Notes under the pieces: model-generated | Databases searched by the model: none | Seen by the model: only the letters and a program-made list of their open reading frames with translations | What the model was told of the DNA's origin: nothing | NCBI GenBank assembly: GCA_029093185.1 | Contig: GCA_029093185.1_4348.1 | Length of the DNA stretch: 43,655 bases | Strand: one strand, 5' to 3' | Origin: a phage | In this document: piece by piece, positions 5,259-21,223 of the stretch | Numbering within the stretch: the stretch's first letter is position 1 | Layout of the letters: every line of letters starts with the position of its first letter | Position numbers and translations under genes: made by a program

Positions 5259-5759
5259 TTATTCTTCTTCGAAATACTTGTTCTTGATTGCTGTCAGGCG
5301 TTCCAGGTATTCAGCCAGGTCTTCGTCTTTAATCGCTGCAATCTTCATTTTCTTACCTGTGAACTCTTCCAGCAGTTCATCAGAATCATCGCACGCGGCA
5401 TCGCTCGGACCTTCGTTAATTGCATCGTCGATAGCCTGAATCTGGTCGCGCAGAGACTTATAGTCTACTTCTTCTTTCTCTTCTTCCGGCTCTGGCGTCG
5501 TTTCCTCTACTTTAGCTTTACGCGGCTTGCGTTTTGGCTTCTCTTCCTCCGCCGGTTTAGTGTCAACTACGTCTTCACCTTCAACCGGGATTTCTTTTGT
5601 TGCTTCTTCAGCGCACTCAGCTACCGCTTCTTTGGTGTACGATACCGTCTCTACTTCCAGCGGCGTGGCAACCTGAACAACTTGTTTCGCACTGTTCGCG
5701 GCAATCAGTTCGTGCGCAACTACGAAACGTTCCAGTAATACTAAGAATTTCTCTAACAT
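5259..5759 (-). CDS. Highly acidic low-complexity protein
   Basis: 166 aa; central Glu/Lys/Pro-rich tract (EEEKPKRKPRKAKVEETTPEPEEEKEE) and acidic C-terminus. Confidence 0.55.
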   Translation of the reverse strand: MLEKFLVLLERFVVAHELIAANSAKQVVQVATPLEVETVSYTKEAVAECAEEATKEIPVEGEDVVDTKPAEEEKPKRKPRKAKVEETTPEPEEEKEEVDYKSLRDQIQAIDDAINEGPSDAACDDSDELLEEFTGKKMKIAAIKDEDLAEYLERLTAIKNKYFEEE

Positions 5760-5783
5760 TATTTATTCTCCTGTTTATTTGGG

Positions 5784-6011
5784 CTACTCGCCGTCGCCTT
5801 CTGTAAGGCTATCGTCTATTAATTCAAATTTACCGTTTGGGTGTTGAATAGCTTCTTGCCCGCAATGGTCGCAGACAACAAGTTTATCGAACCCATCAAA
5901 CTCATCCCCTACTACGCAAGAAAGTACAAATTTATGTTTTGTGCACACTTCTTGCGGAGCGCCGAAAATTGCTCGAAAACCTTTAGCTATGGCCCCAGTG
6001 ATTGTGTTCAT
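5784..6011 (-). CDS. Small zinc-ribbon protein
   Basis: 75 aa with CTKHK...C and CDHC cysteine/histidine pairs. Confidence 0.5.
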   Translation of the reverse strand: MNTITGAIAKGFRAIFGAPQEVCTKHKFVLSCVVGDEFDGFDKLVVCDHCGQEAIQHPNGKFELIDDSLTEGDGE

Positions 6012-9106: not shown

Positions 9107-9522
9107 CGAAACTTAGTATACATTGCGAATAATGGGAAATCAAACATAATCGCACCTATTGACATTATGAAAATCTTCGTTTAAGGTGCTTTTGTATCTT
9201 AGTTACTTTGATTCCTGTTCACCTTGTAAAACCGCTTAAAACGCAGCTGCGCGCAGCGCAAGCAAAGTGTTAAGCGAAAGTTTACTGAACATAAGAATTA
9301 TCGTAACTTTCCTTCCTAAGTATCTCCGGTTGCCCTGGGCAAGCTCTATTCTCATCGGCAGCATATCTCTTAAGTATCTGATTTTCTTAATGTGCCGTAG
9401 ATTCGCAACCGTAAAAATGTAACGATTATTGGGCAGGCTTAAGCCTGCCCTTTAGCTACCAAGTAATAAGAATAAAGGCACAACCCTCCCCGAAGAATCA
9501 CAACGGCAACGTAACTATTCTC

Positions 9523-9556
9523 TTGCACACCCCAACATAATAGGTTACTATTCACT
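9523..9556 (+). promoter_or_regulatory. Early promoter (TTGCAC-17-TACTAT) with operator palindrome
   Basis: TTGCAC 9523-9528, 17-nt spacer, TACTAT 9546-9551; TAATAG-GTTA-CTATTC overlaps the -10. Confidence 0.55.
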
Positions 9557-9585
9557 TATCGAAACGAGACATAAGGAATTTAGAA

Positions 9586-9804
9586 ATGAACAAAGCGACC
9601 GCAAGCGTAGTTTCCGCAATCAAACAAGTTTACGGCATCGATATTTCAGAGCGCGTAATTATCGGGAACAAACGCAACTTCTTTACGTTCGGCACCGACG
9701 GTATGGATGGAAACGATTTTAACAACGTACAACGTTTCGCTATCGGTAAGGGGCTTCGTAATGAGCCTGCGGGTTACAAGAAATTCGCTATCTACTTTAA
9801 ATAA
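9586..9804 (+). CDS. Hypothetical early protein
   Basis: 72-aa ORF, first gene after the divergent control region; AAGGAA Shine-Dalgarno. Confidence 0.55.
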   Translation: MNKATASVVSAIKQVYGIDISERVIIGNKRNFFTFGTDGMDGNDFNNVQRFAIGKGLRNEPAGYKKFAIYFK

Positions 9805-9925
9805 ACCCACGGCATCTAATCATGATGCTCGTGCCGACGACTCTGAGGGAGGTTGCCGTGAATAATTACCCGTTTATTTTAATTGTCAGCGCTGTTTATG
9901 AGGCGCACGCGTTGTGGGGGTTGGT

Positions 9926-10120
9926 ATGAGTCCGTATAACCGGTTTCGTCTGGAGCGTCTACGTCACGGATTAAGTAACGCTAAATTAGCTCTCGATATA
10001 TGGGAAAGTACGCCGTATTTTTCCTCGAAGGCATGGTTTGTCGCTCGCGCTACAGCGTCCGTTCAGTACCGGGAATACAAGTTAAACAGTTTCCTTAAAC
10101 ACCATGGGGCTAAGTTATGA
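9926..10120 (+). CDS. Hypothetical early protein
   Basis: ORF 9914..10120 (GTG); the ATG at 9926 has a G-rich Shine-Dalgarno upstream. Confidence 0.4.
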   Translation: MSPYNRFRLERLRHGLSNAKLALDIWESTPYFSSKAWFVARATASVQYREYKLNSFLKHHGAKL

Positions 10121-11325: not shown

Positions 11326-11519
11326 TGGTGCAGAGATATGAGGTAAAAGCGTGGGGCCTGCCAGAGCCTGAGATGGCTGAGTACGCATACGGCGATTATG
11401 TAGAATATGACGCTTATCTGAAACTTGAAGCAAAGTTACGTGAATTCGCTAAGCAGGTGCTAGATAGCCCGTGTGACTGGAAGACAAATGAATTAGCGCG
11501 CGAGATTCTTGGAATATGA
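11325..11519 (+). CDS. Hypothetical protein (paralog pair, member 2)
   Basis: ATG 11325 overlaps the upstream stop (TAATG); YDAYLKLEAKLREFAK motif. The ORF track's longer version starts at GTG 11280. Confidence 0.45.
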   Translation: MVQRYEVKAWGLPEPEMAEYAYGDYVEYDAYLKLEAKLREFAKQVLDSPCDWKTNELAREILGI

Positions 11520-11809
11520 GCCTTGCAACTGACATCCTGAAACGAAGCGGCCTTGCGCCGCTGTCACCGAGAGCGAAGACACGTATACACAAGCGTCGCC
11601 GTAACGTGCTGTACCCAGAGATACAAGAACGGCGTAAAGCTATCCGCGCCTGTGGATTCCAGAACGGAAAGGCCGTGAATCTCGGTGAGTTTAAAACAAA
11701 GGAACGCGCAGCTATCGCGAACCGGCTATTTAATTACTGGAAATCGCTGGGGTACGATGATATTCCGACGAAACCACAGAGACGACAATACATCTGGAGA
11801 CATAAATGA
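11516..11809 (+). CDS. Hypothetical basic protein
   Basis: 97 aa, Lys/Arg-rich. Confidence 0.45.
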   Translation: MSLATDILKRSGLAPLSPRAKTRIHKRRRNVLYPEIQERRKAIRACGFQNGKAVNLGEFKTKERAAIANRLFNYWKSLGYDDIPTKPQRRQYIWRHK

Positions 11810-12246
11810 CTACTATCGCGTTTGACGGAAAGACAATGGCCTGTGATACCCGTGTTGTGTGCGGGAGTAACTGTTACAACACAGACACAAAGATATACGA
11901 GAACGAATTTGTTGTTATTGGGGCGGCTGGCGATGCAGGGGTTGGTATCCTTTTAGTGGAGGACGATAGTATTTTAGTGCCTAAGCACTACGATTTTGAT
12001 TTCTCTGCCTTGGTGTGGGTTAAAGACATCGAAACGTTGTGTAGGGTGGAGTTCTATAAATCTTGGGATTGTGCTCTTAGTTTGGTTATTCAGATTGCGG
12101 ACAGCTTTTCCGCCGTTGGTTCAGGCGCCCCTTATGCCCTAGCGGCTATGGAATGTGGGTATTCGGCGCAAGGTGGTGTAGCAGTTGCATCGAAGTTCGA
12201 CCCTGACACCGGCGGCAAGATTATTACCAAACAACTATTAGGATAA
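11806..12246 (+). CDS. HslV/proteasome-beta-like Ntn-hydrolase (putative peptidase)
   Basis: 146 aa starting M-TTIAF; DGKTMACDTR (Asp17 region), TDTKIY (Lys33 position), VIGAAGDAGVG, and AVGSGAPYALAAME resembling the HslV GSGGPYA segment. Confidence 0.5.
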   Translation: MTTIAFDGKTMACDTRVVCGSNCYNTDTKIYENEFVVIGAAGDAGVGILLVEDDSILVPKHYDFDFSALVWVKDIETLCRVEFYKSWDCALSLVIQIADSFSAVGSGAPYALAAMECGYSAQGGVAVASKFDPDTGGKIITKQLLG

Positions 12247-12305
12247 TTCCTACCCGTGGTATCCTCCAGTTACTGCATACTTAATACGCACCTGGAGGAT
12301 TCATC

Positions 12306-12614
12306 TTGGATAAATTTACTGAAACTGTGACGGGGTGGCTTCTCGCTGCCGCACTAGCCGGAGGGGTAATCGGACTAAGGCAACATAAGTCCGCTATTTC
12401 CGGCCCTATCGACGGCTTCTGCTTTATTGCAACTGGCTTCACTTGCGCCGTATTTGGCGCACCTCTCGCAGCTCAATGGTTTGGAATCACGGGCGACCGT
12501 GAAATCGCAGGCCTGGGCTTCATTATCGCTATTCTCTGGATGCCTATCTATTCCCGTCTGTCCGGTATCGTCGCCGGAGAATACATCGCACGTCGAGGAG
12601 GCCCGGATGAATGA
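12306..12614 (+). CDS. Putative holin (three predicted transmembrane segments)
   Basis: 102 aa; three hydrophobic stretches and a charged C-terminus; directly upstream of the endolysin. Confidence 0.5.
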   Translation: MDKFTETVTGWLLAAALAGGVIGLRQHKSAISGPIDGFCFIATGFTCAVFGAPLAAQWFGITGDREIAGLGFIIAILWMPIYSRLSGIVAGEYIARRGGPDE

Positions 12615-12879
12615 GTTATTCTGGTTCTGCGGTATGCTGGCAATCGGAGGCACATCGCTGTTTAATGTGTATCATCCCAGCGTTGACGACGGGCTATTTG
12701 GCCGGGTGCTCTATATCCTGACTGCTATTGTCTGCGCCGCAGGATGTATCCACCTGTTACAGGGCAGCATGTCTCCGACGCTGCCTGAGACATTAATCAC
12801 ATTAGTTGCGCTGCGCCAGATTCGTCAGGCGTGGCTGTCATACGGAGGACATAAGCGTGTCTCGAAACATTTCAGATAA
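12607..12879 (+). CDS. Putative second holin/antiholin membrane protein
   Basis: ATG 12607 overlaps the upstream stop (ATGAATGA); two hydrophobic segments; in frame with the ORF-track entry 12427..12879. Confidence 0.4.
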   Translation: MNELFWFCGMLAIGGTSLFNVYHPSVDDGLFGRVLYILTAIVCAAGCIHLLQGSMSPTLPETLITLVALRQIRQAWLSYGGHKRVSKHFR

Positions 12880-13345
12880 TGGATTGCATTTTACCGCTGC
12901 ATTCGAGGGGTTCCGTGGAACTGCGTATCGTGCTACGCCGAACGAGAAGTACCTTACTATTGGCTACGGAAGCTACGGCCCTCATGTGTATGAAGGGCAG
13001 AAGATTACGAAGGGTCAGGGACTCCTGTTACTGAATCGTGATATGGCTAAGGCCGTAGCTGCGGTTGACGCAGCGGCACACCACTCCCTGACACAGGCAC
13101 AGTTCGATGCAGTGTGCGACCTGGTCTATAACGCTGGTGCTGGTGTGATTGCCGCTGCCACCGGTACGGGTAAGGCACTGCGTTCCGGTGATGTTGCGAC
13201 GCTGCGGGCTAAGCTGGCGTTGTTCATCAACCAGAACGGCAAACCATTACTCGGCCTGCGCCGCCGTACAGCTGGTCGTCTGGCGCTGTTCGACGGTAAA
13301 CCGTGGCAGGAGGCAGAGGCTATCGGGCGCGCGGTGAAAGGTTGA
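12857..13345 (+). CDS. Endolysin, lysozyme-like (GH24/T4-lysozyme-like fold)
   Basis: FEGFRGTAY...TIGYG matches the T4-lysozyme catalytic Glu and TIGIG region; GTG 12857 has a GGAGGA Shine-Dalgarno 7 nt upstream (the ORF track starts it at 12806). Confidence 0.7.
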   Translation: MSRNISDNGLHFTAAFEGFRGTAYRATPNEKYLTIGYGSYGPHVYEGQKITKGQGLLLLNRDMAKAVAAVDAAAHHSLTQAQFDAVCDLVYNAGAGVIAAATGTGKALRSGDVATLRAKLALFINQNGKPLLGLRRRTAGRLALFDGKPWQEAEAIGRAVKG

Positions 13346-20836: not shown

Positions 20837-21223
20837 ATGAATCTTAAAGCAACTGTCGTAGCAGGAGCATGTTTCATCATCCTGGTTTACGCACACGGCA
20901 TCTACCAGTATCGCAGCGGATGGAACGAAGGCCGGGCTAATCTCGTTTCGCAGCAACAGCAGAAAGCACAGGCTGAGTTAGCGAAGAAAACACAACGGCA
21001 GCAGCAGGATGAATCGAAGGCCGCCGCCGCTGACAACGAAGGCAAGACGAAATCAGAGGTGATTACCCGTGAAGTCGTTAAGTACATTAAAACGCCTGGT
21101 CGCAGCGTGTGCACTTTTGACCCTGAGCGCGTGCAGCTCAAGTCCCGCGCCGTCGCCAACGCCAATTCCATCCCCGGATACGACGATGATGCAGCCGCCG
21201 TGCAAACTGGCGCAGCCAAGTAG
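20837..21223 (+). CDS. i-spanin (Rz-like)
   Basis: 128 aa; N-terminal transmembrane segment (ATVVAGACFIILVYAHGIY) followed by a Gln/Ala-rich periplasmic region. Confidence 0.65.
   Translation: MNLKATVVAGACFIILVYAHGIYQYRSGWNEGRANLVSQQQQKAQAELAKKTQRQQQDESKAAAADNEGKTKSEVITREVVKYIKTPGRSVCTFDPERVQLKSRAVANANSIPGYDDDAAAVQTGAAK

Follow-up and report, generated by a model that had tools for sequence, protein, structure and literature searches.

A PPH-family proteasome homolog encoded immediately upstream of the holin genes in a Kagunavirus-type phage

Introduction

Does a short gene next to the lysis genes of a coliphage encode a proteasome-type threonine protease, and would its product work with the host unfoldase HslU? 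The question arose from a 43,655-nucleotide phage contig (GCA_029093185.1_4348.1; this whole stretch is called the window here), in which an initial annotation, made from the sequence alone, had read one open reading frame (ORF) as a compact HslV/proteasome-beta-like Ntn-hydrolase. The window is 83–99% identical to Escherichia coli Kagunavirus-type siphophages and is related to Salmonella Jersey-like phages. Protein turnover in cells depends centrally on proteases of the proteasome type.

Both the family and the gene are already known, and the locus does not represent a new kind of element. The PPH family was published by Fuchs et al. (2021) as proteins of about 140 residues, encoded in Caudovirales and their hosts and nearly always flanked by phage genes. 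PPH radiates from the cluster of BPH (Betaproteobacteria proteasome homolog) alongside HslV; 324 nr90 sequences were reported. PPH and its extended relative RPC are unique in lacking helix H2, and PPH also has neither S12/H5 nor a propeptide (Fuchs et al., 2021). The 146-aa protein of the window does not differ in sequence (100% identity) from Bas73_0068, a protein of Escherichia phage GertrudWoker_Bas73 that GenBank lists as 'peptidase HslV family protein'; other relatives are annotated as 'ATP-dependent protease', 'protease' or 'hypothetical protein'. The suggestion that this was not a characterized phage function therefore does not hold as a claim of novelty, since the family was described in 2021 and the gene already carries a GenBank annotation. 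Our literature searches brought up neither experiments on any PPH or phage proteasome homolog nor a later publication that gives the family's full name; searches on HslV with Kagunavirus or Jerseyvirus, and on phage-encoded HslV or proteasome, gave genome-annotation mentions only. An mBio 2025 paper on JSS1_004 was set aside as a lead, as its subject is a T7-like kinase and hslV comes up in it only among host transcripts. The interest of the locus thus lies in PPH biology (role, substrate, assembly and retention by phages), not in its sighting in this window.

Results

A conserved gene under purifying selection

Direct reading of the window confirmed an ATG-initiated ORF of 146 aa at 11806-12246 on the + strand, as the initial annotation had it, and all of the strings quoted there are present in the protein: M-TTIAF (residues 1–6), DGKTMACDTR (7–16), TDTKIY (26–31), GAAGDAGVG (39–47) and AVGSGAPYALAAME (103–116). 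The protein is also about 30 aa shorter than bacterial HslV, as had been stated (E. coli HslV has 176 codons). The features of the locus are collected in Table 1. The ORF immediately upstream (11516-11809, +) encodes a basic protein of 97 aa assigned to phrog_9632, a family of unknown function, and the ATGA overlap between the two suggests that they are probably translationally coupled.

The 146-aa protein matched PHROG 1040 'peptidase HslV family' (E=1.2e-33). An exhaustive HMMER search gathered relatives forming 1,194 clusters at 50% identity, nearly all of 135–155 aa and with alignments starting at residue 1, and tblastn found the gene in 321 phage records. Among ten orthologs of 146 codons, pairwise dN/dS had a median of 0.14 (range, 0.03–0.26), indicating strong purifying selection. 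From the PHROG match, the breadth of the family, the number of phage records and the dN/dS value, we conclude that this is a real gene, far beyond a chance ORF. A terminator-like hairpin within the gene (11975-11990) was dismissed as a chance match, because the region contains 11 such sites against a shuffle expectation of 7.9 (sd 2.2).

Table 1. Positions of the PPH gene, its predicted catalytic codons and the neighboring lysis features in the window
Feature	Position	Strand	Remarks
Shine-Dalgarno GGAG	11796..11799	+	6 nt 5' of the PPH ATG; direct sequence reading
PPH-family proteasome homolog CDS	11806..12246	+	146 aa; stop codon included
ATGA start/stop overlap	11806..11809	+	PPH ATG with TGA of the upstream 97-aa ORF
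Thr2 codon	11809..11811	+	Predicted nucleophile, Thr1 once Met is removed; 97% Thr and 2% Ser among 329 members
Asp14 codon	11845..11847	+	Asp17 equivalent; aligned to HslV and beta5 Asp17; 99% conserved
Lys29 codon	11890..11892	+	Lys33 equivalent; aligned to HslV Lys33; 99% conserved
Gly42 codon	11929..11931	+	Oxyanion-hole Gly47 equivalent; aligned to beta5 Gly47; 99% conserved
Gly105-Ser106-Gly107 codons	12118..12126	+	GSG motif; both Gly 100%, Ser 96%; aligned to GSG of HslV, BPH and beta5
Asp132-Pro-Asp-Thr135-Gly136 codons	12199..12213	+	20S-beta-type D166-x-x-S169-G170 motif; aligned to beta5 'RDAYSGG'
RNA hairpin in PPH-holin spacer	12258..12305	+	Between PPH stop (12246) and holin TTG (12306); not part of the protein
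Hairpin 3' arm CUGGAGGAU	12292-12300	+	Contains the holin Shine-Dalgarno
First holin gene	12306-12614		Start TTG at 12306
Second holin gene	12604-12879		
Endolysin gene	12806-13345		Followed by further small ORFs, then terminase

Predicted fold and catalytic site

The single sequence missed the gathering score of the T1-family model PF00227 (15.1 vs 22.4 bits, E=0.019). We aligned 132 distant representatives and used their profile to gather diverse homologs; the family profile matched beta5, BPH and HslV at 5e-11 to 1e-10 over nearly the full length, and hhalign against E. coli HslV gave a probability of 96.8%. The assignment to family T1 is thus borne out by the family profile, whereas the sequence on its own stays below the cut-off. 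AlphaFold on a shallow alignment of 77–96% identical orthologs reached a pLDDT of 38.7; this alignment was replaced by one of 124 sequences, which yielded a model with pLDDT 93.6 and pTM 0.88. The model shows the Ntn beta-sandwich core with flanking helices. It has 11 strands and three helices only, at residues 46–51 (a stub of H1), 108–116 (H3) and 121–131 (H4); residues 52–65 are coil, and the chain ends just after a final strand at 139–143. The top Foldseek matches in the PDB were HslV/ClpQ, BPH and 20S beta subunits only (TMq 0.69–0.74). In BFVD, at least 39 viral proteins share the fold at E<=1e-3, some of them annotated as proteasome or HslV subunits.

Conservation was counted over 329 unique family members, gathered without selection on the N-terminus and about 30% identical overall. 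A Met-Thr start is present in 141 of 150 unselected representatives, and the Lys33-equivalent lysine proposed within TDTKIY is Lys29, as the alignment to HslV confirmed. Ser106 aligns as the equivalent of Ser129. In the D-x-x-S-G motif, the Asp166 and Gly170 positions are each 93% conserved, and the Ser169 position is Thr, Cys or Ser in 99%. That all seven catalytic positions are 93–100% conserved at such low overall identity argues for an active enzyme. Together with the model fold and the Foldseek matches, the aligned residues uphold the identification as a proteasome-beta/HslV-like Ntn-hydrolase, and the protein is probably an active, stripped-down threonine protease of the proteasome/HslV type. 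BPH, however, the nearest relative of solved structure, shows no activity on standard peptides or casein although its site is intact (PMC5777263), so that catalytic residues alone do not prove general protease activity.

Membership of the PPH family

The features of the protein agree with those published for PPH: it has 146 residues compared with about 140, Thr follows Met directly, leaving no propeptide, and conservation covers both the catalytic triad and Gly47. H2 is absent while H1 (as a stub), H3 and H4 are kept, and S12/H5 is missing, the alignment to beta5 ending at residue 179 of about 200. BPH and HslV are its nearest relatives, a Group I trait, and it is encoded, like other PPHs, by a tailed phage, here a Kagunavirus/Jersey-like siphophage; elsewhere its relatives also lie within bacterial prophages. 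The only difference that we found concerns family size, with 1,194 clusters at 50% identity here against the 324 nr90 sequences of 2021. The PPH representative WP_042125023.1 was not among the accessions of ten consensus-like NCBI clusters; on its features, rather than on clustering with that representative, the protein very probably belongs to PPH.

Other relatives differ more clearly. BPH (PDB 5OVS, 5OVU) has about 185–200 aa, retains H1 as well as H2 and carries a long acidic pore loop, and it is chromosomal, stress-linked and forms 14-mers, whereas PPH is phage-borne and lacks H2. Compared with 20S beta subunits (PF00227), PPH has no propeptide, H2, H5 or alpha-ring partner. Some family members carry C-terminal extensions of 40–130 residues, as at loci L032 (204 aa), L046 (183 aa) and L054 (185 aa); further extended entries are BFVD A0A1W6DWU9 (263 aa, 58% identity over 131 columns) and the PHROG 1040 profile (277 positions). 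These may be the published RPC group, or fusions or mis-annotations with a downstream gene.

Comparison with HslV

The protein is not a true HslV. It scores below the cut-offs of the HslV equivalog models TIGR03692 and NF003964 (11.6 against 157.75 bits and 11.3 against 137, respectively), the sequence also falls far below the 20S equivalog cut-offs, and H2, most of H1, the H3-H4 linker and C-terminal elements present in HslV/ClpQ (T1B) are missing. By hhalign, gaps lie opposite HslV residues 63–79 and 83–86 and opposite a 9-residue stretch between H3 and H4, and the last ~11 HslV residues have no counterpart. In place of the D-I-C-I-Y-T-N of HslV, the protein has the 20S-type D-x-x-T-G-G. The TTI that follows the start codon is shared with E. 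coli HslV.

In HslV, the pocket for the HslU tail is formed by Phe54, Phe57, Ala79, Lys80 and Gln114 (PMC6429459), and a basic cluster of Arg86, Arg89 and Lys90 is functionally required (PMC5777263). Ala79 and Arg86 are deleted in the PPH protein. In a stretch of low confidence, Pro58, Phe64 and Asp65 stand opposite Lys80, Arg89 and Lys90. The positions of Phe54 and Phe57 are occupied by Ile48 and Val51. Gln114 corresponds to Gln96, which is replaced by Pro, Thr or Arg in close orthologs. As alignment reliability is at its lowest here, the apparent loss of docking residues is suggestive; because of these changes and the loss of H2, docking of the PPH protein to HslU is unlikely.

Genomic context

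In the window, the PPH gene is the last ORF in a run of small + strand ORFs, with two holin genes and the endolysin gene directly downstream; its place just ahead of the holins is constant in this phage group, and only a hairpin lies in between. The replication genes lie on the opposite strand, and PPH closes the run that precedes the lysis genes, so that the placement 'among the early genes' in the initial annotation is no more than plausible. Rz-like spanin genes would lie at 20837-21223 of the window, by analogy with Bas73_0008/0009 (5509-6004 in locus L007). In that related phage, the Rz-like spanin genes are inside the head-gene module, about 8 kb from holin and endolysin, and the lysis genes are thus split over two sites.

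To survey the family, ORFs were called in 83 loci (80 viral loci and three long contigs, forming 42 groups at 60% identity), and neighbors were clustered all-against-all. A Met-Thr start is encoded in 83/83 loci. Any one neighboring family is confined to at most 9 of the 42 groups, and no conserved partner or substrate gene emerged. The recurrent neighbors that could be identified are generic phage genes: portal (DUF4055, P22 type), large terminase, MuF-like, YbcO and DnaT-like genes. We saw three settings, namely just before small/large terminase and portal genes, within head/neck modules downstream of portal and MuF, and in nin-like regions with NinB, DUF1367, DUF1064 and YbcO. Distant members, too, have phage genes around them, for example NinB, YbcO, DUF1367, portal and terminase. 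No AAA+ or unfoldase gene recurs as a neighbor across the 42 lineages, and none is annotated as an AAA+ unfoldase in the closely related Bas73 genome. The 169-aa genes upstream of PPH in two prophages are unrelated to each other, and PADLOC defence models matched neither the protein, nor three distant homologs, nor the upstream 97-aa ORF. These results indicate that PPH behaves as a mobile accessory gene without a dedicated unfoldase or adaptor.

A role as prohead protease was set aside for the window phage, as the gene is outside the head module and its position varies across the family. In loci L048, L055, L056 and L088, the homolog is inside the head/neck module, downstream of portal and MuF-like genes, and no head-maturation protease was recognized in their gene sets; a role in capsid processing is conceivable in these lineages.

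The spacer between PPH and the holin

The hairpin that separates the PPH gene from the first holin gene has a predicted MFE of -23.8 kcal/mol (z -3.4), and none of 200 shuffles was as stable. The spacer is nearly invariant in eight Kagunavirus loci, while the flanking protein is only 73–94% identical. Jersey-type phages have an unrelated spacer sequence with the same layout, AATCTCCGAA, 13 nt, TTCGGAGATT and then TTTTTATT (z -4.6). Theirs carries an added U-tract and resembles an intrinsic terminator, with the holin ribosome-binding site covered as well. These spacer observations include locus L018 (5467-5518) besides the window. From these sequence patterns, the hairpin may act as a gate on holin expression and also define where the upstream transcription unit ends.

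Discussion

The fold and the catalytic residues make us largely confident that the 146-aa protein is an N-terminal-threonine peptidase of the PPH family that would be matured by loss of Met, homo-oligomeric and independent of an unfoldase. Host methionine aminopeptidase would remove Met1, as it does for E. coli HslV. The Thr1 hydroxyl would then act as nucleophile together with Lys29 (Lys33) and Asp14 (Asp17), with Gly42 (Gly47) forming the oxyanion hole and Ser106, Asp132 and Thr135 (Ser129, Asp166 and Ser169) bracing the site. H3 and H4, the ring-to-ring contact helices of proteasomes, are kept, which makes an oligomer probable. With H2, most of H1 and S12/H5 gone, the surface that docks HslU in HslV would be remodelled, and the protein would probably work, like BPH, as a homo-oligomeric peptidase with no need of an unfoldase. 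It would be expressed as the final gene of its transcription unit ahead of the lysis cassette, and its targets might be host or phage proteins during infection. Their range may be narrow, as the inertness of BPH warns by analogy.

The initial annotation had instead raised pairing with host HslU. In that reading, the phage would supply an HslV surrogate whose rings dock on HslU and redirect its ATP-dependent degradation; the scores below the equivalog cut-offs, the absence of the apical-face helices H2 and most of H1, the deleted or altered docking determinants and the variability of Gln96 among close orthologs all speak against this. HslU is not bound by BPH, which is just as close a relative (PMC5777263), and in the 42 lineages, whose phages infect many different hosts, no hslU is linked to the family, nor is one linked to the PPH gene here. 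The pairing idea is therefore unsupported, and we regard it as improbable.

Connectase (MJ0548), too, is a reduced proteasome homolog: its nucleophile is Thr1, and helices on its H1/H2 face are missing. Such proteins can be monomeric ligases; a sequence-specific transpeptidase, ligase or single-site processing enzyme, possibly monomeric and non-degradative, would suit the largely uncovered sandwich face that H2 loss leaves in our model, and BPH inertness on generic substrates (PMC5777263) fits narrow specificity in this branch. Connectase, however, lacks both H1 and H2 and has a two-helix insertion between S3 and S4, a combination that is absent from the PPH protein, and we consider an activity of this type very unlikely. 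Catalysis might also be irrelevant, the protein being a decoy that poisons host HslV rings by co-assembly or a purely structural or regulatory factor; that no activity has been reported for PPH, and that it is a small protein without a partner gene, would agree with this. Such strong conservation of the catalytic positions at about 30% identity is unexpected for an inert scaffold, and the strong purifying selection also argues against one, so that such a role is highly improbable. An N-terminal-threonine peptidase of the PPH family remains the reading that we prefer.

Beyond this peptidase reading, PPH could be a functional, unfoldase-independent viral 'mini-proteasome' with an unusual assembly arising from H2 loss, which phages might use to cleave specific host or anti-phage defence proteins or, in this phage group, to time lysis. 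We offer this tentatively and consider it rather doubtful; the idea of lysis timing comes from the constant position of PPH directly upstream of the holins, with the intervening hairpin covering the holin ribosome-binding site. To identify a substrate, or a quaternary structure of a new kind, would be without precedent for PPH. Among the carriers of the gene are E. coli and Salmonella phages that are easy to work with, Bas73 of a curated model collection being one, and the value of the present sighting is that a 44-kb lytic coliphage offers a tractable entry to a first functional study of PPH.

Two minor observations concern variation around and within the gene. In the prophage of Variovorax sp. 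PMC12 (CP027773.1; locus L002), a CAP12-PCTIR TIR-domain gene lies at 9244-10086 on the opposite strand, one gene downstream of PPH, and the region between nin-like genes and terminase may be an accessory or defence hotspot. Among close orthologs, the H3-H4 region occurs as one of two alternative modules, 'MECGYSAHGGVAVASKFD' or 'MYLG[HNE]TA[TA]RAITVAAQFD', and the S2-S3 hairpin as 'VVCGSNCY' or 'VT-GDHIY'. These modules are found in differing combinations, which suggests recombination inside the PPH gene, including the helices that mediate ring contacts in proteasomes.
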